Positions 19,735-60,948 are shown, numbered from the stretch's first letter. The stretch: 64,000 nucleotides of DNA from Deltaproteobacteria bacterium (GCA_019310485.1 JAFDEF010000001.1:13289-77288); one strand, 5' to 3'. Program-made: numbers and translations. Notes: generated by a model not told the origin, from the sequence alone.

Positions 19735-19827
19735 CAAAATTCATCTTGTCAACTTGTCGGCTTGCTCCCAGAATTTCAATAAAGGGGAGCTGGCAGATTA
19801 GATCCTTTTTGGGGAGAAACGGTTGCC

Positions 19828-30263: not shown

Positions 30264-30293
30264 ATTCTAGGAATAAGCAGGCAAACCTGTCAA
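30264..30293 (-). promoter_or_regulatory. Sigma70-type promoter candidate for the LsrF-like/ADH/fba unit
   Basis: The minus strand reads TTGACA-18 nt-TAGAAT, about 60 nt upstream of the LsrF-like start codon. Confidence 0.4.
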
Positions 30294-30411: not shown

Positions 30412-30615
30412 TTAATGTTGGTTGGTCGATATTACGGCTTTGGGGTTCCTTATGGCCTCTGGAGCAAAGACCGCGGCAATTGCCTCAGGCATCTGTGCAA
30501 GAGTTTTAAAACCCCCAATTTTGAAGGGTGACCAGTCCTTCCTACTAACACAGCATGGAAGTTCAATCCATGGATGATTAGTATTGAGAGATAATTGGCT
30601 CTTTTCATAAGCCAT
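30412..30615 (-). CDS. Hypothetical small protein (67 aa from ATG 30615)
   Basis: The ORF overlaps the AcnX small-subunit stop by about 11 nt (MAYEKSQLSLNTNHPWIELPCC...). No recognisable motif. It would be the last gene of the AcnX-containing unit. Confidence 0.25.
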   Translation of the reverse strand: MAYEKSQLSLNTNHPWIELPCCVSRKDWSPFKIGGFKTLAQMPEAIAAVFAPEAIRNPKAVISTNQH

Positions 30616-31021
30616 CTTTGTTTCGAATTTCGATATAGCCCTCATTCGCATTAATTCTCACGAAATCCCCGTCTTCGATAAATTCAAACGGATCTTCTTC
30701 CAGGTCATGGACCATAGGAGTTTCGGTGATGATCGCACTGACCGCCACGACGCCTTCTGCCTTTACGTTAATTATTCCCCTGGGTGCATGACCACGCTTG
30801 TAGGCGGCATAAAATTGCCAAGAACCTGTTGTTGAACCCTTCCCTGTGGGGAAAACAAGGATTTTGCCAGCCACGCTCCTACCCTCAAGCTCATGACCCG
30901 GTTCCCTTATAATACCCGTGTCAGGATCCATGCCACCGGTAAACGATATGGCTGTGCGGGAAACAATGGCTTCGCCTTCGGCGACCCCACCAGTCACAGA
31001 TTTTGCTCTAATTTTTCTCAA
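30605..31021 (-). CDS. Aconitase X swivel-domain protein (AcnX small subunit; former DUF126)
   Basis: VAEGEAIVSRTAISFTGGMDPDTGII...GKILVFPTGKGSTTGSWQFY. The preferred start is TTG 31021, preceded by GGAGGG and overlapping the large-subunit stop (ATTGA). The track ORF extends to 31084. Confidence 0.8.
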   Translation of the reverse strand: MRKIRAKSVTGGVAEGEAIVSRTAISFTGGMDPDTGIIREPGHELEGRSVAGKILVFPTGKGSTTGSWQFYAAYKRGHAPRGIINVKAEGVVAVSAIITETPMVHDLEEDPFEFIEDGDFVRINANEGYIEIRNKDGL

Positions 31022-32274
31022 TGGCGTCCCTCCCACCGTCCGGATATAGCTGCCTGCACGCACGCGCGGGTTGACCCAAAGCAAGTATCCATACCGAAAA
31101 GATTATGGGCATAATAACAGCCCCTGGCCGAATTCATTGCAATAACACGAATACCTTGCTCTTTCAGGTAAAGATGGGGGCCATCTGCCGCACCAACGTC
31201 AGCCACGATACGGGCACCTGAAGACTCGAGCTGTTCAAGCAAGCCCATCCTTTCACACAAGGTCTTTACCCATCTGGAGGTACAGATCCAAAGTTGCGTT
31301 TCAGCATGGAGTTTGTTGCTGCCTAACAATTGGGCAATCTCCTGCACCTCCTGGATGCTACACTGTGGACATCCGAAAATCACAAGATCCACCTTTTCCT
31401 CGGTGCAACTGGAAATCTCAGTGTAGGATTTGTCAACATCTTCCTGACGAACCACTATGTCTGGAGACGAAGGCGGGTTTTGGCCGAAAGCTTGCTCAAC
31501 ACTGCTGGCCTCCGGCGTTGTGCCGACTAAATGTACAAGCCCCATTGCGCCGGTTACAGTCAAAGAATAAAGAAGCCCTTTGATTGCCTCTATGGGCAAG
31601 TTGTTGGGCAAGTTGACAAAGACCGGGATTTTCGTACCGGCAATTTTCCCCAAATGCCACCCCAAGGCTTTGTAATCGCATGGATCGTAGTCCTCAAAAT
31701 CCAAAGATCCCACATCGATAAGAATCTCGCCCTTTCTATTTTGGGTAAGGTGCAACCCCCATTCCGGAATTGCACCCACAATAGCTGCAGCCAGGGCAAC
31801 GTGATCTCCGTCCCTATTAGACCTGGCTCCAATAACCGAATTAGCGAAAACCTGGCTCCCTGAAGAAGCCCATGCGATGTGGTCCCCGAACCTGGGGACA
31901 TTGCCCACCAGGTAGTGGTGGCACGAATAAGTAAGTGCAACACCCAGAGATTTTAGCGCCTCATGAATCCTTTTTTGCTTAGACCTCAGGCCGGCAGGGA
32001 CCTTTAGCTCATCAGCCTGTTCAAAGTCATACATTTCAGGGTTCTTGGTTGTAAACACCCTTACCCTGGTTCCATCACTTGCCAAATCCTCCAGCCACTC
32101 TATTCCCTCCTCCATAAGCACTGGATAATTACCGGCAATGTGAACGCTAGTAATGGTAATCAATCGTTCGGCTTCGTAGCACTCGCCGTAAGCAGCAAGG
32201 ATCTCCATCGCTTTTCGGGCACCGCGACCCTCTTTGCCGTCCAACATTTGCTTCTGATTTTCCGTGAGCTTCAT
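31018..32274 (-). CDS. Aconitase X catalytic-domain protein (AcnX large subunit; former DUF521)
   Basis: 418 aa, MKLTENQKQMLDGKEGRGARKAMEILAAYGECYEAERLITITSVHIAGNY. Length and N-terminus are typical of the family. Confidence 0.85.
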   Translation of the reverse strand: MKLTENQKQMLDGKEGRGARKAMEILAAYGECYEAERLITITSVHIAGNYPVLMEEGIEWLEDLASDGTRVRVFTTKNPEMYDFEQADELKVPAGLRSKQKRIHEALKSLGVALTYSCHHYLVGNVPRFGDHIAWASSGSQVFANSVIGARSNRDGDHVALAAAIVGAIPEWGLHLTQNRKGEILIDVGSLDFEDYDPCDYKALGWHLGKIAGTKIPVFVNLPNNLPIEAIKGLLYSLTVTGAMGLVHLVGTTPEASSVEQAFGQNPPSSPDIVVRQEDVDKSYTEISSCTEEKVDLVIFGCPQCSIQEVQEIAQLLGSNKLHAETQLWICTSRWVKTLCERMGLLEQLESSGARIVADVGAADGPHLYLKEQGIRVIAMNSARGCYYAHNLFGMDTCFGSTRACVQAAISGRWEGRH

Positions 32275-32317: not shown

Positions 32318-33814
32318 TCAGACTTTATATTTCCGAAGTTCCCGCTTCAAGATCTTTCCCTGAGGGGTTTTGGGCAGGTCTTCCATGAAAATGACCCTCT
32401 TAGGGGCTTTGTAAGACGCCAGCCTCTCCTTACAAAACTTGATAAGCTCATCTGCGGTGGCTTTGCGGCCTTTCTTAAGGCGTACAAAGGCGGTCACGGT
32501 CTCCCCGTATTCTTTGTCCGGGAGCCCTGCAACGCCGCACTCTTCAACAGCATTGTGCTTATAAAGCACATCTTCCACTTCAGAAGGATATACGTTCAAC
32601 CCCCCGCTTATGACCATATCCTTTATCCTGTCGATTATGTAAAGATAGCCGTCCTCATCCATTCGGCCGAGATCCCCCGAATGAAGCCAGCCTCCATCCA
32701 TGGCCTTTGCACTTTCCTCCGGTCTATTGAAATATCCTTTCATAACATTGGGTCCCTGGATAAGGATTTCTCCCTCTTCTCCAACGCCAAGTTCATTTCC
32801 ATCCTGGTCTGCAATCTTCACTTCAGCGAGACCAGCAGGCGTACCCACCGACCCAACTTTGTGCCTGTATAAATGGTTGAAAGTGACTAGGGAGGATGTT
32901 TCAGTCATGCCATAGGCTTCATAAATGTTCAGGCCGAACTTATCCTTCCATTGCCTAACGACTTCTGAGGGCATACTCGTTGCCGCCGAAAACGAATAGC
33001 CGACAGATTTCAAGTGCTTATGACAGTGGGGGTTATTGAGAAAGCGGATGTAAACCGTTGGAACCGCGTACAAGCGTGTCACCTTGTTTGACTCGATTGA
33101 TGAAATAATTTCATCCATTTCAAAGCCTTTATGCAAAACCAGAGTCGCGCAGGCATAAAACATTGAGTTCATTATGTGACAACCCGCAAAAACATGATTT
33201 AAGGGCATAAAACAAAGACCTGCATCCCCGGAAGTGGTTCTTTCATGAAAGCAAACATTCTGAGCCGTGTAGAGGAGATTCTTATGGGTAAGCATTGCTC
33301 CTTTGGGTATGCCCGTCGTTCCCCCTGTGTATAAGATCACGCACGTATCATCAGGCGCACAATTAATGCTCTTGAATGGAGCCACTTTGCTTCCCCTAAC
33401 CTCGCATAAAGTTGATAGGGTACTGTCTTTTTCGATAATGAGTATATCCTTAATATATGGTAGCTTTTCACTCACCGGCACGTTTGGTAGAAGGGACTCA
33501 CTGGTCACCAGCACGACAGGTTCAGAGTCGCGAAGTATGTGCTCCAGCTCAAAACTTTTGTAAGCAGCACTCACGCATACCGCAATGGCACCCAGCCTTA
33601 TCATCCCGTAGTAAATCATAATCCACTCGGGCCTGTTACCGGCATACAGTGCTATCCTATCACCTTTGCTGATTCCCAGTTCTCTAAAATAGGACGCTAC
33701 AACACTAACACACGCATCCAGTTCCCTGTATGTAAAGGCCTTATTCCCGTATACAACAGCCTTCTTCTCAGGGAAATACTTGGCTCCCTGGGTCACTACG
33801 TCAGAAAGATTCAT
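32318..33814 (-). CDS. AMP-forming acyl-CoA ligase (ligase 1)
   Basis: 498 aa. AMP-binding motifs ILYTGGTTGIPKGAMLTHKN, YGMTETS and GWLHSGDLGRMDEDGYLYIIDRIKDMV. Confidence 0.85.
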   Translation of the reverse strand: MNLSDVVTQGAKYFPEKKAVVYGNKAFTYRELDACVSVVASYFRELGISKGDRIALYAGNRPEWIMIYYGMIRLGAIAVCVSAAYKSFELEHILRDSEPVVLVTSESLLPNVPVSEKLPYIKDILIIEKDSTLSTLCEVRGSKVAPFKSINCAPDDTCVILYTGGTTGIPKGAMLTHKNLLYTAQNVCFHERTTSGDAGLCFMPLNHVFAGCHIMNSMFYACATLVLHKGFEMDEIISSIESNKVTRLYAVPTVYIRFLNNPHCHKHLKSVGYSFSAATSMPSEVVRQWKDKFGLNIYEAYGMTETSSLVTFNHLYRHKVGSVGTPAGLAEVKIADQDGNELGVGEEGEILIQGPNVMKGYFNRPEESAKAMDGGWLHSGDLGRMDEDGYLYIIDRIKDMVISGGLNVYPSEVEDVLYKHNAVEECGVAGLPDKEYGETVTAFVRLKKGRKATADELIKFCKERLASYKAPKRVIFMEDLPKTPQGKILKRELRKYKV

Positions 33815-33893: not shown

Positions 33894-35348
33894 TCATTCA
33901 CCGAGGGACCTTACGTATTCTGCGGCGTTTTCGCCAGCTATCCGCCCGCTATTCAGCGCAAAACCCATCGTATTGCCTGGCAAAATAAAGACATAACTGT
34001 CACCGTATATCGTGCATGCATCAGTTCCCACGGCGTATAGACCCGGGATCACTTTCCATTCCTTGTCCAGCACCTCAGTCCTATGGTTGATCTTGATACC
34101 TCCAAGGCTTCCATATGCACTCGGAAAATGCTTTGCGGCGTAGAATTTAGGGACCTTGACGGGCCGGAGATACCTGTGGTTTTTGTTAAAAAGATTGTCA
34201 TACCCTTTCTCGCAACATTCGTTATATTCATCTACCGTTCTGTGTAGACCGGAGGCATCAATCCCAGTTTTCTTGGCCAATTCTTCCAGTGAATCGGCCA
34301 CATATATTTCCCTAAACCCCTGGTCAAGCGCATTCTTGATCGCCACGTCCATATTTTCAATTTTCATAAACGGGAAAACAACGCTGATGTTATCAAACCC
34401 CACCGTCTCCATATGTTTTTTCGTATTTTCATCAAAAATGAGAAACGCACATCTTCCCTTTTGCCTGGAAATCGCGTTTCCTGTATAGGTGGTGTTCGCC
34501 ATAATGGCCTCATCCATAAAACGCTCCCCCAAAAGGTTAACCATAAGGTGGGGCTGCCGTAAGGCCGCTTGAAGGTTGGGCTCAAGCTGTTTGGAGAAGC
34601 CGTAGATGAGTTCCATAGTCATCTCAGTTGGAGCCGCCCCCACTTCCCATGCCATTTGGATGCCATCCCCATTCAAACCGGGAATTCGAAAAGGGAACAG
34701 GTCACGCCCGCAATCGAAACCGGTAAATTTTTTGATTATTTCTGGATTATCGCCAAATCCGCCCGTGGCCACAATTACTGCTTTTGCCTTTGCTTGGATG
34801 GGCTGCCCGGATTTGTCTTCGGCGATAACACCTGTAATCCGACCACCTTCCCTCTGGATTTTCCTGGCCGGTGTTCTTAGCAGGATGTCGACCCCAAGTT
34901 GTTTAGCACGATCAGTCATGATTTTAGTCATAGTCGCCGAGGCCATAGGGCCAGGCTGACCACTGGCCGGTTTTACCAAATGCCAAGTAAAATGAGCCCC
35001 CCGGAAATAGGCTGCTGGCTCGACAAATTCAACGCCCATCCTCTCCAACCAGTCGATCGTATCCGCCGATTTGTTTAGATACGCCCTCACCAGCCTGGCA
35101 TCAACACGCCAGTGCGTATATTCCATAAAAGTTCTAAATGCCTCATCTTTTGTGGGACCATGCTGCTTCAGGCGCTGCAGCCGGCTTTCAACTGCGAGAG
35201 GCCCCATCCCCATATTTCCTGCTCCTCCTGTCCTGGGGGCTTTTTCAAAGACGATGACATTGACTCCACCCTCAGCGGCGGCTATGGCTGACGCCAAACC
35301 GGAAACACCGGCTGCAATCACTACAACATCGGCCTTTAACTCCTTCAT
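33894..35348 (-). CDS. FAD-dependent oxidoreductase, fumarate reductase / 3-ketosteroid dehydrogenase-like flavoprotein
   Basis: Dinucleotide fold ADVVVIAAGVSGLASAIAAAEGG, plus VIVATGGFGDN and C-terminal IPGLYAVGTDA. ATG 35348 (MKELKADVVV, RBS GGAGGAAG) is preferred over the track start 35450. Confidence 0.8.
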   Translation of the reverse strand: MKELKADVVVIAAGVSGLASAIAAAEGGVNVIVFEKAPRTGGAGNMGMGPLAVESRLQRLKQHGPTKDEAFRTFMEYTHWRVDARLVRAYLNKSADTIDWLERMGVEFVEPAAYFRGAHFTWHLVKPASGQPGPMASATMTKIMTDRAKQLGVDILLRTPARKIQREGGRITGVIAEDKSGQPIQAKAKAVIVATGGFGDNPEIIKKFTGFDCGRDLFPFRIPGLNGDGIQMAWEVGAAPTEMTMELIYGFSKQLEPNLQAALRQPHLMVNLLGERFMDEAIMANTTYTGNAISRQKGRCAFLIFDENTKKHMETVGFDNISVVFPFMKIENMDVAIKNALDQGFREIYVADSLEELAKKTGIDASGLHRTVDEYNECCEKGYDNLFNKNHRYLRPVKVPKFYAAKHFPSAYGSLGGIKINHRTEVLDKEWKVIPGLYAVGTDACTIYGDSYVFILPGNTMGFALNSGRIAGENAAEYVRSLGE

Positions 35349-38843: not shown

Positions 38844-38905
38844 TGTTTTCCCTCTTTCTGTTTTTATTGTGGATATTTTTCGGAACACGACCTTCACGTT
38901 CCGTT

Positions 38906-39880
38906 TCAAAATCCCTTCCTACAGTTTTCTCCAGTCTCACATAAGCCCCTGCCAACACGACTGATTATCTGGCGAATTCGACTTACAGAGCCAACGAGCC
39001 CGTAAGGGAAGTACATCACCACCAGAATGAACAGGAGCCCAAATATGATAAGATGCGCCTCTCCCAAAGTGAGAGCAAATATCTCTGAAAGGACCACCAG
39101 GAAAATACTGCCTATAACAGGACCAATTAATGTGCCGCTACCCCCGATGACGGCTGCCATGAGCGGCTCAAATGTCCAGATTGGGCTAAAAACCGCGGTA
39201 ACGTAATGAAATGAGAGCCGCATGAAAGCATAGACCCCTCCGCCCAAGCCAGCTAGGAACGCACTAATCAGTAAGGCGTAGACTTTATATTTAAAGCTAT
39301 TCACACCGGTAACCTGGGCTGCTTGCTCACTGTCCCGGACCGCAACCATCCCCAGTCCCAGCTTGGAGCGGGTTATGAAATACGTTACAGCTATTGCGGC
39401 AAACGCCACTGTCAAACCAAGGTAGTACCGGGGAATAAGGCTATAGCTGGCAGCATAGGACCCCGGCATTTCGATCATCCTCTCAAAAATATTGCCCACC
39501 ACTATCCTACACACCTCTGCCAATGCAAAGGTCCCAATAGCAAAGTAAGCGCCCTTCAGCCTCAGAGTCGGCAGACCTATAATCCCTGCTAAAACCACTG
39601 CTGATAGACCTCCCGCGATTACAGCAAGGTAAATCGGCATCTCAGCCTTCCACACAAAATGGGTAACCAGCACCCCACAACCAAAAAAAGCAGCAAGGCC
39701 CAGATTGATCTGCCCTGTATAGCCACCTATGATATTCCAACTTTGAGAAAGAATGACAAAAATAAACACCATAATGAGGAGGTTCAGGCTGCCCGTCCCG
39801 ATTTCTATAACCATAGGGGCTGCCATAAAGGCTAAAACTAACAACCCAATTACGAGAAGTCTCTTCCAATCAGGCAACAT
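38906..39880 (-). CDS. Branched-chain amino acid (HAAT) family ABC permease, LivM-type (set 1)
   Basis: Multi-TM protein with GYTGQINLGLAAFFGCG and LRLKGAYFAIGTFALAE. ATG 39880 is preferred over the track start 39982. Confidence 0.85.
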   Translation of the reverse strand: MLPDWKRLLVIGLLVLAFMAAPMVIEIGTGSLNLLIMVFIFVILSQSWNIIGGYTGQINLGLAAFFGCGVLVTHFVWKAEMPIYLAVIAGGLSAVVLAGIIGLPTLRLKGAYFAIGTFALAEVCRIVVGNIFERMIEMPGSYAASYSLIPRYYLGLTVAFAAIAVTYFITRSKLGLGMVAVRDSEQAAQVTGVNSFKYKVYALLISAFLAGLGGGVYAFMRLSFHYVTAVFSPIWTFEPLMAAVIGGSGTLIGPVIGSIFLVVLSEIFALTLGEAHLIIFGLLFILVVMYFPYGLVGSVSRIRQIISRVGRGLCETGENCRKGF

Positions 39881-39890
39881 GCCGGATCCC

Positions 39891-40769
39891 TTACTCCCTT
39901 TTCGCAAATAATCCCTGTGGCTTGAACATAAGGACCAATACAAACACGAGAAGAGCAATAGCCTGGCGATAGGGAACACCAAAAATCAGAACACTCCCCG
40001 CCTCCAGCAATCCATACACCAAACCGGCGGGAATAATGGCATTGATATTGCCTTCTCCGGCAAGTACCATGACCACGAAAGCTATTAGGAGCCACCCTAT
40101 TCCACCAGATGCACTGATGGAATAGCTCGAAACGATAACCGCGCCGGCCACGCCGGCCAGCGCTATCGCAATACCGGTGGAAATTAAATACACGCGTTGA
40201 ACATTAACTCCGCATAAGCTGGCCGCCTCGGCATCCTGTGTTGCCGCACGGAGATGTTTACCAAAGTAGGTTCTGCTGAGAACAGAATACAGAGCCAATC
40301 CTACCAGGACAGCTATGCCCACACCGCACAGACCGGTAAAACTGAATCTCGCTCCGAAAAACCTAAATGTCTCCCCTGTGTAAGAGGTAAGTATAGTTCG
40401 AACATTGGGGGTCCACAGCATGGTCATCGCGTTATCAAGCACCCAAATTAAACCAAAGGTAATCAACATAGAAGTATCAATCCGCATTCCAACGTCCGGT
40501 AATTTTAGCAACGGCGATAACGCCAACCTATAGAAGACCAAGCCAATTAAAAACATCGCAATCATTACCAGGGGTATTGAAAGGAAAGGATCTATACCCC
40601 ATAGATTGAAAAGCCAGAAGCTTAGATACCCACCAAGTATTATGAAGGTGCCATGAGCAATATTGAGAAATTTCATCACTCCCATGAGCAGGCCAAGCCC
40701 CAGCGCCACCAGCCCATAGAGTGCGCCCGCCAAAAGCCCATTGGCGATAGTCTGGAGCACAAACTCCAT
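39891..40769 (-). CDS. HAAT family ABC permease, LivH-type (set 1)
   Basis: 292 aa. MEFVLQTIANGLLAGALYGLVALGL...NIAHGTF, typical of LivH. Confidence 0.85.
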   Translation of the reverse strand: MEFVLQTIANGLLAGALYGLVALGLGLLMGVMKFLNIAHGTFIILGGYLSFWLFNLWGIDPFLSIPLVMIAMFLIGLVFYRLALSPLLKLPDVGMRIDTSMLITFGLIWVLDNAMTMLWTPNVRTILTSYTGETFRFFGARFSFTGLCGVGIAVLVGLALYSVLSRTYFGKHLRAATQDAEAASLCGVNVQRVYLISTGIAIALAGVAGAVIVSSYSISASGGIGWLLIAFVVMVLAGEGNINAIIPAGLVYGLLEAGSVLIFGVPYRQAIALLVFVLVLMFKPQGLFAKRE

Positions 40770-40772
40770 AAA

Positions 40773-41501
40773 CTACCCTGCCTTTTCCTCTGCGCCGATG
40801 CCCAAATATGTTTCTTTAATGCGAGGGTTGCATAACATTAACTTTGCATCGCCTTGGTCCACAATCCGCCCATTTTCCATGATATAGCCGCGACTAGCCA
40901 TAGACAAAGCCAATTCAATGTCCTGTTCGACGAGCAACACCGCTAATTTCCTCAACTTGTTTATGCCCTGAATAACTCCAGAGAGCTCTTGAACCACAAT
41001 AGGACTCAGGCCCAAAGACATCTCATCAATCAAGAGCACTTTGGGCACTGACATAAGCGCCCTACCTATAGCTAACATCTGCTGCTCTCCACCGCTAAGT
41101 GTACCTGCTTTTTGTTTGGCTCGCAGCTTTAGGGGAGTGAAAAACTCGTATATCCACTCGAGTGTGTTTTGCCTGGTCTTGCGTGCGGCATTAGTGGAAG
41201 CGCCCACTTCCAGGTTCTCCAAGACGCTCATCTGTGGAAATATTCTCCTACCTTCGGGAACCATGGAAATCCCTAGCTCCACAATGTGGTGCGCGGGTAA
41301 ACCATCAAGGCGTATGTTGCCAAAATCAATGTGCCCGGCTCGAACTTTGAGCAACCCGGAGATGCTTTTCATGACAGTGCTTTTGCCCGCACCATTAGAA
41401 CCAAGAACCGCCACTATTTCACCGTCCCCAATCCTCAGCGAGACATCCCATAGCGCCTGAATGTCGCCATAATAGACATCTATATTACTAATTTGTAGCA
41501 T
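40773..41501 (-). CDS. HAAT family ABC ATPase, LivF-type (set 1)
   Basis: 242 aa. Walker A GSNGAGKST, signature LSGGEQQMLAIGRAL and Walker B LLIDEMS. Confidence 0.9.
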   Translation of the reverse strand: MLQISNIDVYYGDIQALWDVSLRIGDGEIVAVLGSNGAGKSTVMKSISGLLKVRAGHIDFGNIRLDGLPAHHIVELGISMVPEGRRIFPQMSVLENLEVGASTNAARKTRQNTLEWIYEFFTPLKLRAKQKAGTLSGGEQQMLAIGRALMSVPKVLLIDEMSLGLSPIVVQELSGVIQGINKLRKLAVLLVEQDIELALSMASRGYIMENGRIVDQGDAKLMLCNPRIKETYLGIGAEEKAG

Positions 41502-42225
41502 ATGGCTTCTTACCTAAATATGCCCTGATAACCTCGGGATTGTTTACAATTTCCTCTGGAGCACCATCAGCAATTTTCCGGCCAACTTCTAATACCACCA
41601 CCCTGTCCGAGATCCCCATTATAACTTTCATTACGTGCTCAACGACTATCAGACTTATCCCGGAATCTCTAATTGCCTTTACCAACGCTATGGCGTTGTC
41701 CAGCTCCGCTGGATTCAAACCTGCCATCATCTCATCCAGTAATAACAATTTGGGCCTTGTCGCTAGCGCCCGCGCAATTTCCAGCCGTTTGCGGTCCACC
41801 AGACTAAGCATTCCTGCCATCCCTGAGTGCTTATCCCCCAGACCGGTGAAAGCCAAAAGCTGTTTTGACTCTATGCGTGATTGCTTTATGTTCCGAGCTG
41901 GCTGGCTACCATGGGCCCTGCCCACCATCACATTTTCGAGTGGAGTTAGCCGACTAAAGGGCTTAACTAGCTGAAAAGTTCTGGCTATGCCGCTCTGGCA
42001 TATCTTGTAAGAAGCCATTCCGGTGATATCCTTATTATCAAACCTTATTCTACCGGTATCAGGTTTTAGAACTCCTGTTATTGTATCAAACAAAGTGCTT
42101 TTACCTGAACCGTTGGGACCAATAAGTCCCAGTACCTCTCCCTGGTCAAGGCTAAAGCTTAGCCTATTGATAGCCAGGACACCACCAAAAGCCTTTGATA
42201 GGTTCTCAACCTCAAGTAGTTTCAT
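41488..42225 (-). CDS. HAAT family ABC ATPase, LivG-type (set 1)
   Basis: 245 aa. Walker A GPNGSGKST and Walker B LLLLDEMMAGLNP. Confidence 0.9.
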   Translation of the reverse strand: MKLLEVENLSKAFGGVLAINRLSFSLDQGEVLGLIGPNGSGKSTLFDTITGVLKPDTGRIRFDNKDITGMASYKICQSGIARTFQLVKPFSRLTPLENVMVGRAHGSQPARNIKQSRIESKQLLAFTGLGDKHSGMAGMLSLVDRKRLEIARALATRPKLLLLDEMMAGLNPAELDNAIALVKAIRDSGISLIVVEHVMKVIMGISDRVVVLEVGRKIADGAPEEIVNNPEVIRAYLGKKPYATN

Positions 42226-42335
42226 GTTTTGCCTACGCTTTGTGGTTGGGCTTCATTTTCTGCTCTGAAGCTTGGTCCAGGTCAACTCAGCTTAATCTAA
42301 TCGGCACCATAGAGTATTCGCATCTAATTTCCACA

Positions 42336-43541
42336 CTACCTTGGAATGGGATATACTAATTTCTTTGTTTTCATATCATTGGGCCACACCATCTCCATTA
42401 CTCCTTTCTGCCATTGAGTAACCACCGGAGGGGCATCAATTCGCCGGCCTTTGTTGTTGAATTTGATCCGGCCAAAAACGGTCATCGTGTCAATGCCAGC
42501 AATGGCATCCCTGATCTTACTTCTCTCCAACGTGCCAGCTTTTTCTATAGCGGCTGCTGCTATCTGAATCGAGGCGTACGCGTTTCCTACAACGATGTGA
42601 GTTCTTTTCCCAAACTTTGCTTTGTATTCAGCGTTAAGCTCTTTAACCCCGGGGCAGCTTAATGCGGGATGCCAGTCGGGACATCCTATTACGTAATCGC
42701 CCATTGGACCTGTCATCTTTGCCCAGGCTGGATCATCAGAGCCCCTTATCATTATGATACCCTTTGGATTGTAACCAAGCTCCCTCATTTGTCTAAGCAT
42801 CATAATACAATCAGGAGGGACAGGGGCAGAAAAGATCACCTCGGCACCGGCTTTTTTTGCTGCAAAGATGAGTGGGCTCATGTCCCGAGCCAGCATCGGA
42901 TACTTACTGTGAGATACAAATGTAACACCATTGGCAGGCGCCTTCTTTCTAGCAAGATTGAACAATTCCGCAATCCAGTCGCTCTGCTCTTCCCAAACAG
43001 CCCACCTGCTTGGCCTTTGGTCTTTGGGGATATTTGCGAAAGCTGCAAATATTGCATCCACGATCCCATCGTTCATCTTGCTGATACCAAAGTAGTATTT
43101 AAAGCCCCTTTCAAAAAGCCCAACATTTGTTACTAAAGAGGTTATGGCAGGCAACTTATTCTTTTCAAAGATATCAGAAGTTGCGCTCATCAAGGTGGTA
43201 CCACAAACAACAGATGCTTTTCGTTGATTCAGTACTTCTGCACGGGCAACAGCCTTCTCCGGGTTTGTTTCCATGTCCATGATCAAAAGTTCAAGAGGTA
43301 TTTTTTTACCATATTCCTTGACATAGACGCCACCACCCTTGTTTATTTTTTCCACCGCCATTTCGTAGCCAATTTCCGCTGGCTTTCCTATCATGGCATC
43401 TGGCCCAGTAAAGGAAACCAAAATACCAATCTTAATGGTTTTGGGTACCTCCGCTTGAGCATAAGCGGGCACAAAAGACAACATGGTCAGCACGACTATC
43501 ACAAGAATACCAACCGACATTATTAGCAGTCTTCTTTTCAT
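42336..43541 (-). CDS. Periplasmic substrate-binding protein, LivK/Peripla_BP_6 type (set 1)
   Basis: 401 aa. Signal peptide MKRRLLIMSVGILVIVVLTMLSFVPAYAQA, then IKIGILVSFTGPDAMIG. Confidence 0.85.
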   Translation of the reverse strand: MKRRLLIMSVGILVIVVLTMLSFVPAYAQAEVPKTIKIGILVSFTGPDAMIGKPAEIGYEMAVEKINKGGGVYVKEYGKKIPLELLIMDMETNPEKAVARAEVLNQRKASVVCGTTLMSATSDIFEKNKLPAITSLVTNVGLFERGFKYYFGISKMNDGIVDAIFAAFANIPKDQRPSRWAVWEEQSDWIAELFNLARKKAPANGVTFVSHSKYPMLARDMSPLIFAAKKAGAEVIFSAPVPPDCIMMLRQMRELGYNPKGIIMIRGSDDPAWAKMTGPMGDYVIGCPDWHPALSCPGVKELNAEYKAKFGKRTHIVVGNAYASIQIAAAAIEKAGTLERSKIRDAIAGIDTMTVFGRIKFNNKGRRIDAPPVVTQWQKGVMEMVWPNDMKTKKLVYPIPR

Positions 43542-45411: not shown

Positions 45412-46668
45412 CTACTTGCGCTTGTAGAGGTGGCGACATGGCCAGCTGCCTAGCTTTACTACCTTACCGTTCTGCACCTGGTCCACGCGGACCTTATCAA
45501 TGCCTTCAATATCACCTTTGCCATAGGTTAGTGGTGTGCTTGTCATACCGCCTGTCTCAAGGCCTTTAATCCGGTAGAAACCGTTTTCCAGTACTGCGCG
45601 CGGCGTGAGCTTTTCAAAAGGAACTTTTTGCATGGCAAGCCTTAATGCCTCTGTTTGGGTCATAGCCTCGATTATGCCCGCTTCGTACATAATGTGGGTT
45701 ACTTGCTTGCCGGGATGATACTTATTCTGCAGGTCATTGCAGAATTTAATGCCGGGGATGGATAGCTGATCCATCGGGGGAAAGCTGCCGGCGCATACAT
45801 AACCGTCGCCCAGCTTGCCCATGGCAGCAGCGAACACCGCAGTGTGACCGGGTGCAGGCACGCCAAAAACTATTTTGTAAGGTTGGTTCGGTCCCATCCC
45901 CAGCCTAACCATCTCCTTTACCGTGGGCTGTGAGCCCGGGTTGATCATAACCCCAAGCGCCAGATCAACCTTTTTCTTCTTAAGCCACATGAGCTGGGTG
46001 GTTGGTGGGGAGGTGGGCACGAGGGGAACAAACTGGGTGCCAACAAATTCATATCCCACTTTCTTAAGGTAATTGGTAAGCTCCGGTACCACAATCGACC
46101 TCCCCATTGCATTGTCCGCGGTGAGGTATGCAACCCTTGGTTTTCTTTTTTCCTTCCAGTTCTCCATGAACCAGTCTGCAACGGCTGCCAGGGAATCGGT
46201 ATAAATAGGGTAATAAGTGAAGACACTTTGTGGTGGCGTCAGCAAATACGGCCCGGTAGCCATGCTCGGGGCACCAAAGCCATCCTCAAATAGCCTGTCC
46301 TTAAGTGCCAGCGCCTGGGGGGAACCAGAGCACCTGAAAACAAGCATCCCCTTGGCTTTAAGCTCCTCGTAGATAGATAAAGCCTTGGGTGGCTTGAGCT
46401 CATCATCCCGCCACAGCAGTTCCAGGCTTATATCCGATGGAAATTTCTCATTGCGCCATGGGGCCAGGTTCTTTGTCTCATTCACATATTTGACATAGTC
46501 CTGGTAGCCGGCGAGCACTGCCGCCGTGTCCTCTGCGTAGGCGCCGGTTAAAGCCATAGTGCCGCCGACATATAGGGTTTTTGCGTAAGAACTGCGGACA
46601 GTGAATAATGATAAGGCTACCACCGCAATGACCAGACAAGCTATTAGCGCTAATTTGTTTCTAGCCAT
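45412..46668 (-). CDS. Periplasmic substrate-binding protein, LivK/Peripla_BP_6 type (set 2)
   Basis: 418 aa. Signal peptide MARNKLALIACLVIAVVALSLFTVRSSYA, then TLYVGGTMALTGAYA. Confidence 0.85.
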   Translation of the reverse strand: MARNKLALIACLVIAVVALSLFTVRSSYAKTLYVGGTMALTGAYAEDTAAVLAGYQDYVKYVNETKNLAPWRNEKFPSDISLELLWRDDELKPPKALSIYEELKAKGMLVFRCSGSPQALALKDRLFEDGFGAPSMATGPYLLTPPQSVFTYYPIYTDSLAAVADWFMENWKEKRKPRVAYLTADNAMGRSIVVPELTNYLKKVGYEFVGTQFVPLVPTSPPTTQLMWLKKKKVDLALGVMINPGSQPTVKEMVRLGMGPNQPYKIVFGVPAPGHTAVFAAAMGKLGDGYVCAGSFPPMDQLSIPGIKFCNDLQNKYHPGKQVTHIMYEAGIIEAMTQTEALRLAMQKVPFEKLTPRAVLENGFYRIKGLETGGMTSTPLTYGKGDIEGIDKVRVDQVQNGKVVKLGSWPCRHLYKRK

Positions 46669-46749
46669 CTTTCATATCCTCCTTTCTGCTTTGTAATTTG
46701 GTTCATACCATACGAAAAACACACTTTTCTTGCACCTGATCACCTCCCT

Positions 46750-47805
46750 TCACTCTCGTTCTTCATGGGAGAAAGGCCATAGCCTGAAATAAGCTCCGAC
46801 AAGCTCCCACCGGTGAGCCAAACCCCTGGGTTCAAAGATAAGGAAGATAATAATCACTAACCCGTGCGCGATCAGGCCCATGGAAGCGGCCGCCTGGGGA
46901 GCAACAATCGCTGACAATCCCGGGCCAACAACCGTGACCAGCTCATCCAGCAACTTGAGAGCAATAGCCCCGAAAAGAGCACCAAGGGTGCTGCCCATAC
47001 CGCCGACGATTAACATACCCAGATACCACACCGAATCCATGAAGGGGAACAGATCCACAGAGGCAAATGCATAATAGTGAACCAACAGCACGCCCGCTAC
47101 CCCCGCATAAACGCAGCCTATAAAAAATGCCTGAAGTTTATAACTCCACAGATTAATTCCCATGACTTCAGCGGCCAGGTCATTATCCCTGATCGCCACG
47201 AATGCCCTGCCTGCCCTTGTCCTCACTATATTCTGAGCCGTGTATGTGGCGAGGCAAGCAAATGCCATGACAAGGCAGAAATAGCTGCCTTTTGACTTCA
47301 CTGTGAACCCCGCTATCTCAGGTCTGGACACCGCTAATCCATCCCCGCCCCCGGTCAGGCCGTATAGCTGGAGGATAAGCCACACAATTATGAAGTGAGC
47401 CGCTATGGTAGCCATAATCAGGTAGAAACCCTTAATCTTTAATGACGGCAGACCGAAGATCAAACCCGCCACCCCGGCCCCTAGGGCGCCGCAAGGCAGG
47501 GTAGCCCAGAATGGCCAGCCAAGCTTGGCGCTTAAGATAGCCGAAGTATAGCCGCCGACTGCCATGAACCCGGCATGGCCAATGGAAATCTGTCCGCAGT
47601 ACCCCGTTAAGATGTTCAAACCGTGGACACTGATAACCGCGATACCGATCATGGTCATTACGGTAAGGGCCCTATCACTGAGAAAAAGAGGACAAGAGAA
47701 AAGGAGAAGGAGAAAAATAAAGAGCATCGCCCATTGCAGCCGGGTTCGGATAATGGCCATATCCTGAGCATAGTTTTCAAGAAAGGTACCACGCTGTCGA
47801 CCCAC
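46750..47805 (-). CDS. HAAT family ABC permease, LivM-type (set 2)
   Basis: 351 aa. Motifs GYCGQISIGHAGFMAVGGY and LKIKGFYLIMATIAAHF. Confidence 0.85.
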   Translation of the reverse strand: MGRQRGTFLENYAQDMAIIRTRLQWAMLFIFLLLLFSCPLFLSDRALTVMTMIGIAVISVHGLNILTGYCGQISIGHAGFMAVGGYTSAILSAKLGWPFWATLPCGALGAGVAGLIFGLPSLKIKGFYLIMATIAAHFIIVWLILQLYGLTGGGDGLAVSRPEIAGFTVKSKGSYFCLVMAFACLATYTAQNIVRTRAGRAFVAIRDNDLAAEVMGINLWSYKLQAFFIGCVYAGVAGVLLVHYYAFASVDLFPFMDSVWYLGMLIVGGMGSTLGALFGAIALKLLDELVTVVGPGLSAIVAPQAAASMGLIAHGLVIIIFLIFEPRGLAHRWELVGAYFRLWPFSHEERE

Positions 47806-47808
47806 AGG

Positions 47809-48696
47809 TTAAATCCTTTCTATCCTGACCTGACCAAACAGGCCATGCGGTTTGAAGATCAGCACAACTATCATGACTATAAAAGGAAACACATTAGCCA
47901 GACCGCCTCCAGGGAGCAATGGGTCCAGGTAGCCGGCAGCAACATTCTCAAGGATGCCCAGGATTATTCCAGCTACGATTGCGCCACCGATTGACTCCAA
48001 TCCACCCAGCAAAACCACGGCAAATGCTTTGATGCCGACATTGGCCAGTGGTATCATAACTCCCGATACGCCGCCCAGAAGAATGCCGCCAATAACGCCG
48101 ACTACCGATGCAATTACCCATGATAGAGCGTAGACCCTGGTTGCTTTAATACCAGCGCTCTGCACTACCTGTAGATCTTCTGCAGTAGCCCTCATTGCGA
48201 GTCCGATCTTGGTGTAATGAAAAAAAAGCATCAGTATTGTTACTGCGGCACCAGACACGATTAGTCCAATTAAGGACTCCGAGGGCACAGAAATTTCCCC
48301 AATGTGAAGGGATAAGGTGGGTAGCAGCCCGTGGTAAGTCTTGTATTCGCCTCCCCAGATTAAGGTTGCCAGACCTTCTAATATGCTTGCCAGGGCTATG
48401 GTCATCATAATTACGGCCAGCACAGGTTGACCAACCAGGGGTCGCAGGGTGAGCCGTTCTATCAGCAAACCCATCACTGCAGCCGTGGCCATTGCCATTA
48501 AAAGACAGGCCCATATCGGCAGGTGAAAAGCTACAAGGAAAGTATATCCCAGGTAACCGCCTATCAGCACGAAATGTCCTTGCGCAATATTGAATACCTC
48601 GGAACATTTCAGAATAATAACAAATCCTATAGCAACCAGAGCATACACTATGCCCAGAGAAAAGCCGGTTACCACCAATTGCAGGAAATAGGTCAT
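47809..48696 (-). CDS. HAAT family ABC permease, LivH-type (set 2)
   Basis: 295 aa, MTYFLQLVVTGFSLGIVYALVAIGF...NIAQGHF. Confidence 0.85.
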   Translation of the reverse strand: MTYFLQLVVTGFSLGIVYALVAIGFVIILKCSEVFNIAQGHFVLIGGYLGYTFLVAFHLPIWACLLMAMATAAVMGLLIERLTLRPLVGQPVLAVIMMTIALASILEGLATLIWGGEYKTYHGLLPTLSLHIGEISVPSESLIGLIVSGAAVTILMLFFHYTKIGLAMRATAEDLQVVQSAGIKATRVYALSWVIASVVGVIGGILLGGVSGVMIPLANVGIKAFAVVLLGGLESIGGAIVAGIILGILENVAAGYLDPLLPGGGLANVFPFIVMIVVLIFKPHGLFGQVRIERI

Positions 48697-48707
48697 TGAA
48701 AAGCTCT

Positions 48708-50633
48708 TTAGGCGGAGTTGATCCTTATAATAGTCCTTCTTTTTTCAGTGCTGCCGTCCCAGTGTTTGATCAGGGTTTCTAATGGAACCTCGGTTTTTTC
48801 ATTATACATGGCGTTGATAAGTTCGCTTAAGCGGTTTTGCAAAAATCTCCGTCTCAGTTTCCTGGTTCTGGTTAGCTCGCCCTCATCAGGACTAAACTCC
48901 CTGTGGAGATTAACGTATTTCTTCAACATGACGCCAGGAGGCAGAGATTGATTTATTCTGTCTATCTCTCTTTTCACCAGGCTTATAACCTCCGGCTTCT
49001 GGGAAAGGTCGGCAAACCCCGTATAGGCCACCTTTCTCTTCCCTGCCCACCTGCTAACTGCATCGTAGTTGATTACTACGATCGCCAATGCGTACTCCTT
49101 GCCTTGGCCAGCCAGGATCCATGCATCCTTGATATAAGGGCTGAACCGAAGCCGGCTCTCAATAAGCTGAGGGGCTATTTTCTCACCACCGGGCAGTTCA
49201 ATAATATCTTCCAATCTGTCTATGATTACGATGTGTCCGTTTTTGTTGATAAACCCTCCATCTCCTGTATGAAACCAACCTTCTTCAAGGACTTGTGCCG
49301 TCCTCTCCGGGTCCTTACAATAGCCCAAAAAAACACCAGGCTGTCGATAGATTATTTCGCCATCGTCGGCTATTTTCACCTCCGATCCCTTGTGGGCAGG
49401 GCCCACTGTATCCAGGGTAACATCATTGTTCTTCGCCCCGGTTAGTGCCCCTCCCTCTGTCGTGCTATAGAGGCTTTTCAGCGGGACCCCTATCGCATGG
49501 TAGAATCTTAGTGCCTCGGGACTGAGAATCGCCCCGGTTGTGTAACAAATTCTGGCATTTAACAGGCCAAGGCTCCGTTTTAAGGGTCTAAAGAGCAAGG
49601 CATCAGCCAATGCGCGAAGAGCTTTCAAAAAAAGTCCCGGCTTTTTCTTCTGAAACTTTAACTCCGCTGCCTTGTAGCCGATCGGCATTAGAAGGCGGAA
49701 AGCGAATTTCTTAATCACATCAGCTGCAAGCATCCGTGCTTGCACTGTTGCTGCCTGACTTTCCCAGATTCTGGCCCCACTGACAACGATGCTCGGCCCT
49801 GTTTCACTGACGTCCCGGTACTGAGTTTCAGGTGCTTCGGCAAAGTTCAAAGTGCAGCCGGAGAGCAGGTGACAGCCAATACTCCACCATTGTTCTGTTA
49901 TCCAGGCTGGCGGCAGGTAAGGCACCAAGTTATCATCCTCATACCATGGATCCAGGAGCAAATGGTAAATGGCGCCGGTCATCAATGTTCTGAAAGTGTG
50001 CAAGCACCCTTTGGGCGAATCCCCGGTAGTGCCTGAAGTGTAGACAATTGCGCAAACATTATCGGCGGAGCCGGTTTCTACACCACGCTCAAATACTCCC
50101 GGATGTTTTTCCTCATGTTCTCTCCCCAGTTCCAGAACCTGCCTGATTCCCATCAACAAGCTATCCCCATAGTGGGCGAGGCCTTTGTAGTTCCAGTAGA
50201 TAACCCTCTCAAGCCGGGGAAGTTCCTGCTTAGCTTCGAGAAACTTGTCAACTTGCTCCTGACCTTGAGCTATTGCAAATCTGGCGTCAGAATTTTCCGC
50301 AATGTATTTTATTTCCGAGGGCGCAAGTTCGGGACACAGACCCACGCTAATCCCGTGGTTGGACTGAGCCGCGAGTTCAGAGTAATACCACTCCGGTGCA
50401 TTGTCCCCCATAATAAGCAGGCGATCTTCAGGTTCAAACCCCAGGGATTGCAAACCCAGTGCAAGATACTTAACACTCAGATAATAGTCCGCCCATGTAA
50501 CAGGTTCCCATACGCCGTAATGCTTGTGCCGCATAGCCTTGCGACTTGCACCGTATTTTTCGTAATTGTACTTGAGTATCTTTGGCCATGTATCGCCCTT
50601 TTCTTTGTAGAGTTCCTCTTGTGTGGAAGCCAT
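48708..50633 (-). CDS. AMP-forming acyl-CoA ligase, long FadD-like form embedded in the ABC operon (ligase 2)
   Basis: AMP-binding motif IVYTSGTTGDSPKGCLHTF and GWFHTGDGGFINKNGHIVIIDRLEDII. ATG 50633 (MASTQEE) lies 16 nt after the livF stop. The track ORF starts at TTG 50657. Confidence 0.85.
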   Translation of the reverse strand: MASTQEELYKEKGDTWPKILKYNYEKYGASRKAMRHKHYGVWEPVTWADYYLSVKYLALGLQSLGFEPEDRLLIMGDNAPEWYYSELAAQSNHGISVGLCPELAPSEIKYIAENSDARFAIAQGQEQVDKFLEAKQELPRLERVIYWNYKGLAHYGDSLLMGIRQVLELGREHEEKHPGVFERGVETGSADNVCAIVYTSGTTGDSPKGCLHTFRTLMTGAIYHLLLDPWYEDDNLVPYLPPAWITEQWWSIGCHLLSGCTLNFAEAPETQYRDVSETGPSIVVSGARIWESQAATVQARMLAADVIKKFAFRLLMPIGYKAAELKFQKKKPGLFLKALRALADALLFRPLKRSLGLLNARICYTTGAILSPEALRFYHAIGVPLKSLYSTTEGGALTGAKNNDVTLDTVGPAHKGSEVKIADDGEIIYRQPGVFLGYCKDPERTAQVLEEGWFHTGDGGFINKNGHIVIIDRLEDIIELPGGEKIAPQLIESRLRFSPYIKDAWILAGQGKEYALAIVVINYDAVSRWAGKRKVAYTGFADLSQKPEVISLVKREIDRINQSLPPGVMLKKYVNLHREFSPDEGELTRTRKLRRRFLQNRLSELINAMYNEKTEVPLETLIKHWDGSTEKRRTIIRINSA

Positions 50634-50649
50634 ATCCCCACGCCTTTTA

Positions 50650-51450
50650 TCAAGCAATCCACCTTTTTCTTCGGCGGTAGTGCTTGATGTCCCGATAACT
50701 TTTTCTAGAGCCCACGGTAGACAGGCCCATATAGAATTCTCTAATGTCGTCGTTATCCCTCAGTTCCTCAGCCGGCCCTCCCATGACTATCTTGCCGTTC
50801 TCCATAATATGGCCGGTATCGGCAATACCAAGCGCAGCTCTGGCATTTTGCTCCACAAGCAGTATTGCCATTTTTTGTTCAGAGTTAATCCCTTTGATAA
50901 TTCCATAAATTTCCTGGACCATGAGCGGGGCAAGGCCGAGTGATGGTTCATCAAGAAGCATAAGCTTGGGACGGCCCATGAGGGCTCTACCGATCACAAG
51001 CATCTGCTGCTCGCCCCCGGATAGATATCCGCTTGTCTGGCGGCGGAGACGCTTAAGGCCGGGAAAATAGTCAAAAACCATATCCATATCTTTCTTGACG
51101 CCAGCCCTATCCTTCCTGAGATAGGCTCCGACCATTAAATTTTCCTCAACGGTTAGGTGCTCCAGAACTCTTCTTCCCTCCATAACCTGGCTAATACCCA
51201 TTCCAGCGATATCCTCGGGTCCATACCCATCTATTCTCTCCCCAGCGAGGTAAATGCTTCCATCGGTTATCTCTCCTTCCTCGGTTTTTAGAAGACCTGA
51301 TATGGCCTTTAGCGTGGTGGTCTTTCCTGCACCGTTAGCCCCGAGAAGGGCAATTATTTTCCCCCTGCTCACGTTCAGGGATACCCCTCGCAGTACCTCA
51401 ATAACCTTCATGTAAACAACTTCAATATTGTTTATCTGGAGCACCAGCAA
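50650..51450 (-). CDS. HAAT family ABC ATPase, LivF-type (set 2)
   Basis: 266 aa. Walker A GANGAGKTT, signature LSGGEQQMLVIGRAL and Walker B LMLLDEPS. It has a short basic C-terminal tail. Confidence 0.9.
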   Translation of the reverse strand: MLVLQINNIEVVYMKVIEVLRGVSLNVSRGKIIALLGANGAGKTTTLKAISGLLKTEEGEITDGSIYLAGERIDGYGPEDIAGMGISQVMEGRRVLEHLTVEENLMVGAYLRKDRAGVKKDMDMVFDYFPGLKRLRRQTSGYLSGGEQQMLVIGRALMGRPKLMLLDEPSLGLAPLMVQEIYGIIKGINSEQKMAILLVEQNARAALGIADTGHIMENGKIVMGGPAEELRDNDDIREFYMGLSTVGSRKSYRDIKHYRRRKRWIA

Positions 51451-51489
51451 TATCCCCGATTCTGGTTAAAAACGCTAACGCCTACCTGT

Positions 51490-52314: not shown

Positions 52315-52661
52315 CGAATCTTGCCTCCAATCTCTTTCTGGTGAAAATAAAAGGGCCAGTGCGCACTTTGAGATAATATTCGGGCAGCCATCTATTCCGG
52401 GTTCCTGCAAACGATTACGCCCCGGACCTTAACTTAAGTAATTAGGATTTCTTTTCAAAAGAGGGCCTTTGTGACCGGGTTGCAACAAAATACCGCTCAT
52501 TTCTCTCAATTCACTATATCATGCGGCCTCAAAAACTGCAGCAATGCTTTTCCCCTCTCCAAAATGAATGCACCTGATGGGGCATACCCCCATGCATGCA
52601 GGCTCTTCACCCTGGGCGAGCCTCTCCGCAACACGCTTCCACTCATCAAGTTCTTCATAAA

Positions 52662-53546: not shown

Positions 53547-53626
53547 ATCAACCTAAAGACTTTCAATGGCTTTTCTCTTGAGGCAAGTTAATCTTGCCTT
53601 ATCTCTTTACACAGAATCCAACGGTT

Positions 53627-54964: not shown

Positions 54965-54965
54965 T

Positions 54966-60037: not shown

Positions 60038-60041
60038 ACCT

Positions 60042-60935: not shown

Positions 60936-60948
60936 GAGTAGCAGCACC

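Follow-up and report, generated by a model that had tools for sequence, protein, structure and literature searches.

What reaction does a two-subunit aconitase X (AcnX) catalyse in a bacterium in which neither of the two activities known for this family appears to have a place? The question is raised by a 64,000-nucleotide stretch of DNA from a Deltaproteobacteria bacterium (GCA_019310485.1 JAFDEF010000001.1:13289-77288), called the window in the following, which carries an AcnX gene pair on its minus strand. No branch of the aconitase superfamily is less well understood than AcnX: two activities are known, which use differing clusters ([2Fe-2S] vs [4Fe-4S]), and four bacterial subclasses are without assignment. 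Watanabe et al. (2021) divided type II AcnX into subclasses a-f, of which IIc-IIf lack landmark residues and await characterisation (PMC8184944), and Komeyama et al. (2023) described the functions and cluster types of IIc-IIf as unknown (PMC10040528). An earlier note on this DNA had proposed the pair as a candidate for a further substrate class; this is correct, but because the function of IIc-IIf had already been published as unknown, it restates a gap acknowledged in print. That reading is thus supported in part, and the most unusual feature of the pair, a rewired active site shared by a whole clade, was absent from it.

Active site of an isolated AcnX clade

The pair and its junction are arranged as follows.
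31018..32274, minus strand: AcnX large (catalytic) subunit, 418 amino acids (aa), N-terminus MKLTENQKQMLDGKEGRGARKAMEIL (assigned by PF04412, PDB, Foldseek and residue surveys)
30605..31021, minus strand: AcnX small (swivel) subunit, 138 aa from TTG 31021 (assigned by PF01989 and PDB)
31018..31036, minus strand: coupling junction (read straight from the sequence)

The large subunit matched the Pfam family PF04412 (AcnX) with E=6.2e-123 and 410.9 bits (cut-off 31.5) from end to end, its residues 1-407 covering profile positions 1-400 of 400, and the small subunit matched PF01989 (AcnX_swivel) with E=2e-30 and 104.9 bits (cut-off 27), while its score against the NCBIfam model PRK03955 'DUF126' (148.7 bits) was slightly below the cut-off of 163. 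Among solved structures, the large subunit matched 7cnr (222 bits, phmmer) and 7cnp (153 bits) and the small subunit 2hi6 (123 bits) and 7cnr_B (116 bits). Both reading frames named as the catalytic and DUF126/swivel parts of AcnX in the earlier note are therefore borne out, and the profile search on which that note had let its reading depend supports the family. An AlphaFold model of the large subunit (predicted local distance difference test (pLDDT) 81) resembled 7cnr_A in Foldseek (E=8e-32, template modelling (TM) scores 0.78/0.84) as well as 7cnp (TM 0.84), and the protein is predicted to adopt the three-domain AcnX fold.

A database search yielded >120 distinct clusters (90% identity) at 67-100% identity to the query, all from Desulfobacterota-type metagenome-assembled genomes (MAGs; Desulfatiglandales, Desulfobacteraceae, Desulfosarcinaceae), and members at 56-63% identity from Syntrophorhabdus and other metagenomic loci. 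The clade, which is abundant in sediment and bioreactor Desulfobacterota, is sharply isolated, because an exhaustive search of 50%-identity representatives returned a single representative for the whole of it (697 bits), and the next one (342 bits) is 41% identical.

We surveyed 120 clade clusters against 146 other family sequences for positions that are at least 70% conserved in the latter, yet different in all or 119/120 clade members. Exactly six positions emerged, P120H, E137S, A140S, H304Q, C361G and K384R, all within cluster or substrate motifs: P120H alters the site-A motif C-x-P, H304Q the site-1 motif C-P-H, and C361G is site B. Site B holds Gly361 in 120/120 clade members vs Cys in 142/146 other family sequences, none of the 146 having Gly there, and this loss is independent of the alignment, since large-subunit residues 345-383 contain no Cys. 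In place of the three-Cys ligand set of type IIb (site A, site 1, site B), the clade thus keeps Cys118 and Cys302 with Gly361 at site B, and it is the only one found here without the cysteine common to all characterised AcnX enzymes. Two invariant cysteines are new, Cys305, which gives C302-P-Q-C305, and Cys331, with which the next predicted beta-strand ends. The family Glu (At Glu292 / Ap Glu145), present in 121/146 other sequences, is replaced by Ser137, and the family Lys (At Lys530 / Tk Lys361; 122/146) by Arg384; Ser at the Glu137 position occurs in 1/146 other sequences and His after site A in 2/146. Since C118, S137, C302, C305, C331 and G361 are invariant in 120/120 clade clusters and H120 and R384 are present in 119/120, the clade is probably under purifying selection across its breadth.

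Asn78, Ser138, Tyr388, Thr64 of the small subunit (Thr64(S)) and the site-A and site-1 cysteines are retained; the free-carboxylate contacts Ser138, Tyr388 and Thr64(S) are among them, with Arg384 instead of Lys. Small-subunit residues were followed through related loci taken from reference genomes, metagenomes and exact-protein look-ups (68 in all, their open reading frames (ORFs) labelled by similarity to annotated references). Ser63 in GKGSTTGS of the small subunit aligns with Tk GKGSTVGS (Ser62) and At SRGSCTGS (Ser70), and this general base is conserved in 66/67 loci. The swivel signature T28-S63-T64-T65, in which Thr28 replaces Tk Leu27 / At Trp35, was found in 62/67.

Given that Ser63, Thr64, Asn78, Ser138, Tyr388, Cys118 and Cys302 are kept, we infer a still-functional Fe-S hydro-lyase. 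The Fe-S cluster would still be bound, with its third ligand supplied by Cys305 or Cys331; Ser63(S) would abstract the alpha-proton, and the cluster would remove the beta-hydroxyl, or add it in the reverse direction, so as to interconvert a 3-hydroxy acid and a 2-enoic acid. The substrate would be a free carboxylic acid taken up by a linked transporter of the tripartite ATP-independent periplasmic (TRAP) or ATP-binding cassette (ABC) type, and in this genome the acid product might be thioesterified by a co-transcribed CoA ligase for further anaerobic breakdown. Taken as a whole, a type-II AcnX hydro-lyase of an uncharacterised Desulfobacterota/Syntrophorhabdus clade, with a moved third cluster ligand and an imported free acid as substrate, is in our view a reasonably probable explanation.

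Several points weigh against it. In both crystal structures site B ligates the cluster, the site-B Cys mutant C356A of the Aeropyrum enzyme has <4% activity (PMC10040528), and the type-I enzyme of Pseudomonas cannot do without the Glu conserved in the family (PMC10040528); with both residues replaced, different chemistry or the lack of a cluster is conceivable. The proposed role of Cys305/Cys331 as third ligand is based on sequence position and predicted secondary structure, and it stays an inference because the model is weak (pLDDT <50) at residues 119-144, a conserved active-site stretch with His120 and Ser137, and at residues 151-154. Furthermore, the substrate hints described below point at least two ways, each is found in few loci and none is decisive.

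The same six substitutions in catalytic motifs and the four invariant cysteines would suit a clade that has departed from aconitase chemistry altogether, with a fully Cys-ligated cluster (Cys118, 302, 305, 331) or none, and that works as an isomerase, a redox-linked enzyme or a binding protein. To our knowledge, the aconitase superfamily has no member that is not a hydro-lyase. The inactivation of the archaeal enzyme by C356A fits such a departure, whereas the swivel general-base serine, the carboxylate contacts and Asn78 are all kept, and the E145A variant of the A. pernix phosphomevalonate dehydratase (ApPMDh) retains 76% activity (PMC10040528), and Glu is therefore dispensable in at least one AcnX. 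Type IIa enzymes, moreover, function with only two canonical cysteines (PMC8184944). We regard a departure from hydro-lyase chemistry as unlikely.

The loss of the site-B Cys together with the gain of two invariant Cys makes the clade a natural test of cluster-site rebuilding in the superfamily. No functional study of this clade was found in the searchable literature, by which the clade-specific residue changes, chiefly the site-B loss and the two compensating invariant cysteines, appear to be new, as does the near-universal coupling of AcnX to TRAP or ABC importers in Desulfobacterota.

The pair encodes a two-subunit, translationally coupled enzyme. On the minus strand the junction reads GGTGGGAGGGACGCCATTGAGAAAA; the large-subunit stop TGA (31020..31018) and the small-subunit TTG (31021..31019) overlap in ATTGA, the genes sharing 4 nt, and GGAGGG stands at 31033..31028, with a gap of 7 nt from GGAGG to TTG. 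Gene callers were split between TTG 31021 and the downstream GTG 30997 (130 aa product). We favour TTG 31021 because small-subunit residues 3-8 match, in alignment, the N-terminal ends of TK1248 and AF0055, two solved small subunits, and because start codons stand at the same place in related loci: at the aligned position, 67 loci gave ATG in 26, GTG in 7 and TTG in 5, all five of the latter being copies of the window organism's own locus. Homologous loci have ATGA, GTGA or TAATG junctions, preceded by conserved TGGGAGGG. The junction and these homologous starts confirm the TTG start, the GGAGGG, the overlap and the coupling that the earlier note had read from the sequence. One pipeline called a 79-aa ORF (30412-30651, minus strand) that shares 47 nt with the 3' end of the small-subunit gene; lacking a Pfam match and seen in the same organism only, it is probably spurious.

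Genomic context and candidate substrates

Dereplication of the related loci at 95% AcnX identity left 28 with at least 2.5 kb upstream and at least 3 kb downstream, in which we counted neighbours within 7 kb. An importer of any kind was present in 26/28 loci, a TRAP DctPQM or TAXI importer in 22/28 and a Liv-type ABC importer in 6/28; an XRE-cupin or GntR-FCD regulator accompanied the pair in 17/28 and an acyl-CoA ligase in 11/28. Rarer neighbours were Fe-S flavoenzymes of the old yellow enzyme (OYE) type, parts of a corrinoid methyltransferase and acyl-CoA dehydrogenases (3/28 each) and an acyl-CoA mutase with MeaB (2/28). Some loci (L021, L011, L033, L045) are reduced to regulator-AcnXL-AcnXS-DctPQM, and this minimal arrangement argues for direct action on the imported free acid. 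The context described in the earlier note is thus conserved in part: the ligase recurs, the flavoenzyme has a single counterpart elsewhere, and the adjacent Liv importer is not the conserved one.

Two arrangements were seen beside these. One genome (L020, 10001-13085) has the AcnX large-subunit gene twice in tandem (75% and 66% identity to the query) with one small-subunit gene behind, and two CoA ligases and a TRAP system lie on the flanks. The copies of Syntrophorhabdus and related MAGs (L013, L014, L066, L072; ~9300-20700; 60% identity) share a longer gene order, which in L014 and L072 runs GntR, AcnXL, AcnXS, TRAP, B12-binding subunit, MeaB, acyl-CoA mutase large subunit, PrpD/MmgE-like, CoA ligase, and in L013 and L066 stops after MeaB.

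With a ligase gene immediately upstream in the window and conserved in many loci, the enzyme might instead act on the CoA thioester made by that ligase, an alternative that the earlier note had left beside the free hydroxy acid. Yet 17/28 loci have no ligase within 7 kb and do have an importer, the carboxylate-binding residues of both solved AcnX complexes are kept or conservatively Arg, and enzymes of the family work by taking a proton from the position alpha to a carboxylate that is bound close to the cluster. Action on a thioester is accordingly disfavoured and seems to us quite improbable, and we return to the free acid.

As to its identity, the genes around AcnX give hints in different directions. 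Towards aromatic compounds point the ligase, whose closest solved relative is a feruloyl-CoA synthetase, the VprA-like flavoenzyme of the window, a tannase/feruloyl esterase directly upstream in L004, O-demethylase parts in the window, L002, L010, L053, L055 and L064, and a Phenol_MetA_deg porin in L022. The host lineages are known as degraders of aromatic compounds. By sequence, the nearest liganded TRAP binding proteins are 4pgn and 4nap, which we take to be binders of indole acids. The best PDB match of the TRAP binding protein is 4n6d, whose ligand could not be confirmed; the ABC binding protein at 45412 has marginal PDB matches only, and the adjacent LivK-like protein has weak matches to amino-acid and urea binders. 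Towards C3/C4 compounds point AcrC/Bcd-like acyl-CoA dehydrogenases in L021 and L060, acyl-CoA mutase and MeaB in L013, L014, L066 and L072, with a PrpD-like gene also in L014 and L072, and OYE-type Fe-S flavoenzymes in L001, L022 and L048, a family that also includes CoA-ester and steroid reductases. A butyryl-CoA:acetate-type CoA transferase in L048 points the same way. Against curated models, no acyl-CoA dehydrogenase, mutase, PrpD-like protein, CoA transferase or second ligase among the neighbours reached the equivalog cut-off.

Weak and convergent, the aromatic hints suggest a lignin- or phenylpropanoid-derived or other cyclic acid as candidate substrate; about equally likely is an aliphatic 3-hydroxy acid of short chain (3-hydroxypropionate converted to acrylate, or 3-hydroxybutyrate to crotonate). 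Going further than the explanation given above, we propose tentatively, and with less than even confidence, that the clade represents a new functional AcnX type with a cluster on site A, site 1, Cys305 and/or Cys331 and possibly His120, and with Ser and Arg for Glu and Lys, that may hydrate or dehydrate a novel free acid (phenylpropanoid, cyclic or C3/C4 3-hydroxy), a step with which a widespread anaerobic route of sulfate reducers and syntrophs among the Desulfobacterota would begin. Through the tight linkage to TRAP/ABC binding proteins the substrate question is directly approachable, and once the substrate is identified, the anaerobic catabolism of organic acids, possibly lignin-derived ones, would gain a step.

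For comparison with the two known activities, the published contact residues (PMC8184944) were mapped onto the large- and small-subunit alignments, and a neighbour-joining (NJ) tree of 151 family sequences was built. In the tree, the query clade stands apart from both TkAcnX and AtAcnX and groups with P0121 and a bacterial Gly137/Arg384 group, Tk being placed elsewhere with P0199, P0159 and others. The residues known to bind cis-3-hydroxy-L-proline (C3LHyp) are largely missing: from the set Asp203, Thr72, Trp35 and Ile206 plus Cys508 and Cys510, only the equivalent of Thr72 (Thr65(S)) is kept, with Asp203 replaced by Ala47, Trp35 by Thr28(S), Cys508 by Gly361 and Cys510 by Ala363. At the Tk phosphate site, Gly48 and Asn78 (Tk Asn79) are kept, Val49 is deleted, Ser50 is replaced by Asn49 and Asn53 by Val52, and these changes are invariant across the clade.

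That the pair is a dehydratase of cis-3-hydroxy-L-proline could be argued from the LhpI model, the only NCBIfam family matching most of the length, and from the type IIa enzymes, which are likewise two-subunit and bacterial (PMC8184944). However, the large subunit scored 244.6 bits and the small one 65.2 bits against that model (NF051439), whose cut-off is 700. The C3LHyp contacts Asp203, Trp35, Cys71 and Asn294 have become Ala47, Thr28(S), Thr64(S) and Gly139, the two cysteines kept by type IIa include site B, which is Gly in this clade, and Glu292 and Lys530, whose Ala mutants are (almost) inactive in type-I AcnX, have become Ser and Arg. AtAcnX is also the more distant of the two solved enzymes (153 vs 222 bits; NJ distance 0.76), and no proline racemase, pyrroline-2-carboxylate (Pyr2C) reductase, D-amino-acid dehydrogenase or other hydroxyproline-pathway gene was found in the 64-kb window or the 68 related loci. 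On all these grounds taken together, this assignment is very improbable. Least credible of all is a phosphomevalonate dehydratase of the archaeal-type mevalonate pathway acquired by the bacterium: the closest solved structure and sequence are those of the Thermococcus type-IIb enzyme, and JGI labels some clade members 'phosphomevalonate dehydratase large subunit', but the phosphate loop is altered, the site-B Cys is lost, Glu129 is replaced by Ser, the query protein lies outside the Tk clade in the tree, ispG of the methylerythritol phosphate (MEP) pathway (GcpE, 492 bits) is encoded at 8863..9933 of the same window, and the two genes keep company with importers and catabolic regulators, with no mevalonate-pathway genes seen beside clade members in the related loci.

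Judged from its residues, the AcnX pair is neither of the two. The earlier note had come to the same view from the presence of ispG and the absence of hydroxyproline-pathway neighbours; both observations hold, and the view is now backed by the curated model, the residues and the tree, in which the query does not nest in the hydroxyproline dehydratase clade and does not share its active-site residues.

Neighbouring genes in the window

Around the AcnX pair, the window encodes the following.
32318..33814, minus strand: acyl-CoA ligase, 43 nt upstream of AcnXL (AMP-binding and AMP-binding_C)
33894..35348, minus strand: FRD/KstD/VprA-type FAD flavoenzyme, 79 nt upstream of the ligase (FAD_binding_2)
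38906..43541: Liv-type ABC importer, adjacent
45412..52410, minus strand: Liv-type ABC importer, conserved (Pfam), comprising a binding protein (45412-46668), permeases (46750-47805 and 47809-48696), an embedded AMP-binding protein (48708-50657, 649 aa, with permease genes on one side and ATPase genes on the other) and ATPases (50650-51450 and 51490-52410)
52662..55598, minus strand: corrinoid methyltransferase set of the O-demethylase type (Pfam), comprising a pterin-binding MT-II (52662-53546), a URO-D-type MT-I (53627-54964) and a corrinoid protein (54966-55598)
55723-56190, minus strand: MarR regulator, part of the corrinoid region 52662-56190, which lies directly upstream of the conserved ABC importer
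29321-30205, minus strand: LsrF-like DeoC-family aldolase/thiolase (NCBIfam, 370.9 bits, cut-off 297)
28196-29248, minus strand: Zn-dependent dehydrogenase
26862-28151, minus strand: class-II-aldolase-like protein, unusually long

From the flavoenzyme to AcnXS, the genes thus follow each other with gaps of 79 nt and 43 nt and the 4-nt overlap. The acyl-CoA ligase is a conserved accessory partner of AcnX: orthologues with 65-77% identity occupy the same position, directly upstream, in L002, L003, L007-L009, L026-L030, L034, L035, L037, L038, L043, L044, L047 and L052, and its best PDB match is the feruloyl-CoA synthetase 8wev (304 bits). The earlier note had listed it as a co-directional neighbour together with the flavoenzyme and a Liv-type importer, and for these two the outcome differs. 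The label FRD/KstD-like is fair for the flavoenzyme; a role as partner is not supported, the one homologue among the related loci (L069, 69% identity) lying 9 kb from AcnX. The gene is probably co-transcribed with the ligase and is not a conserved AcnX partner. The adjacent Liv importer is not the linked system either, the conserved one being that at 45412..52410, or TRAP in most genomes.

The best NCBIfam match of the flavoenzyme is the vinylphenol reductase VprA (338 bits, cut-off 600). Compared with Shewanella flavocytochrome c3, His365 is replaced by Tyr249, Arg402 by Ala283, His504/505 by Tyr412/Gly413 and the Arg of GANR by Tyr; without the fumarate-reductase residues, it is not a fumarate-type reductase of carboxylic enoates, and an enone or vinylphenol-type compound is the likelier substrate. 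For this flavoenzyme, which lacks the carboxylate and catalytic residues of fumarate reductase, we rejected the idea of an AcnX product on which two kinds of enoate reductase would converge, and it does not speak for an enoate awaiting reduction as that product.

All six genes of the conserved importer, at 61-82% identity, abut AcnXL/S in L007, L008, L034, L035, L037, L038 and L042. Relative to L042, the window has ~11.5 kb extra between this importer and AcnX, which looks as if it had been inserted there and which holds genes for a PAS-LuxR protein, a second Liv system, PhlG-like, FMN-reductase and SnoaL-like proteins and the flavoenzyme. The genes for the PhlG-like, FMN-reductase and SnoaL-like proteins, as well as the LsrF-like, Zn-dependent dehydrogenase and class-II-aldolase-like genes downstream of AcnX, have no counterpart in any other related locus. 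The FMN_red-family protein (37207-38127, minus strand, 306 aa) has a C-terminal CPVCHC...CPVC motif, zinc-ribbon or rubredoxin-like, and no NCBIfam match. The short protein resembling the DAPG hydrolase PhlG (38259-38909, minus strand) covers profile positions 4-169 of 223 and scores 66 against the PhlG equivalog cut-off of 600; its gene overlaps the end of the upstream Liv permease gene.

The corrinoid set is complete in the window and recurs near AcnX, the trio abutting it in L055 and L064; L053 has two URO-D genes and DUF1638, and the corrinoid activase RACo is encoded in L002 and L010. A functional link to AcnX is putative. On the plus strand, in divergent orientation to the MarR gene, 56795-63342 encodes another acyl-CoA ligase, the third (535 aa), and then a third Liv-type ABC system, and the window as a whole is unusually dense in genes for the uptake and activation of organic acids. 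On the other side of the pair, the LsrF-like, Zn-dehydrogenase and aldolase genes probably form a separate operon downstream of AcnXS. A sigma-70-like site upstream of the LsrF-like gene (30293..30264, 11/12 matches) was the only strong site in a promoter and terminator scan of the region, which overall was not above chance.

Comparison with characterised AcnX enzymes

Like the type IIb phosphomevalonate dehydratases (TK1248/1249, 7cnr/7cns; A. pernix PMDh), the pair consists of two subunits whose genes are adjacent, and it shares their fold, with ~34% identity (Foldseek) and 222 bits (phmmer) to the Tk enzyme, and it has in common with the latter the site-A and site-1 cysteines, Asn78, Ser138, Tyr388 and the swivel Ser-Thr. 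Unlike in Tk, the site-B Cys342 is replaced by Gly, Glu129 by Ser and Lys361 by Arg, the Pro after site A by His and the His after site 1 by Gln, and the phosphate loop has changed. Here the host is bacterial and has the MEP pathway, and the AcnX genes stand in a context of import and catabolism.

With the cis-3-hydroxyproline dehydratase (At) the pair shares the superfamily, the mechanism class and a bacterial, catabolic setting. In that enzyme, a serine of the swivel domain serves as base and an Fe-S cluster is the Lewis acid, the substrate being a beta-hydroxy acid whose carboxylate is free. Identity to the At enzyme is ~27%, and the hydroxyproline-pathway neighbours are missing here. The At enzyme binds a [2Fe-2S] cluster with Cys273, Cys508 and Cys510, whereas here the 508 and 510 positions are not Cys and site 1 is Cys; its amine and ring contacts Asp203 and Trp35 are absent.

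The nearest lineage in the tree after P0121 is the Gly137/Arg384 group (for example P0123, P0136 and P0139; 35-42% identity), in which the conserved Glu is likewise missing and most members have Arg instead of Lys as well as Cys at 305; it differs in keeping the site-B Cys, Pro120 and His304. The contexts of P0121, P0122 and P0123 have no common theme except for the TAXI-type TRAP importer to which P0123 is linked. Like AcnX types IIc-IIf, the pair is bacterial, has two subunits and lacks the landmark residues of both known activities, and it falls within the category of these types; the combination of residues found in its clade appears to be peculiar to that clade.

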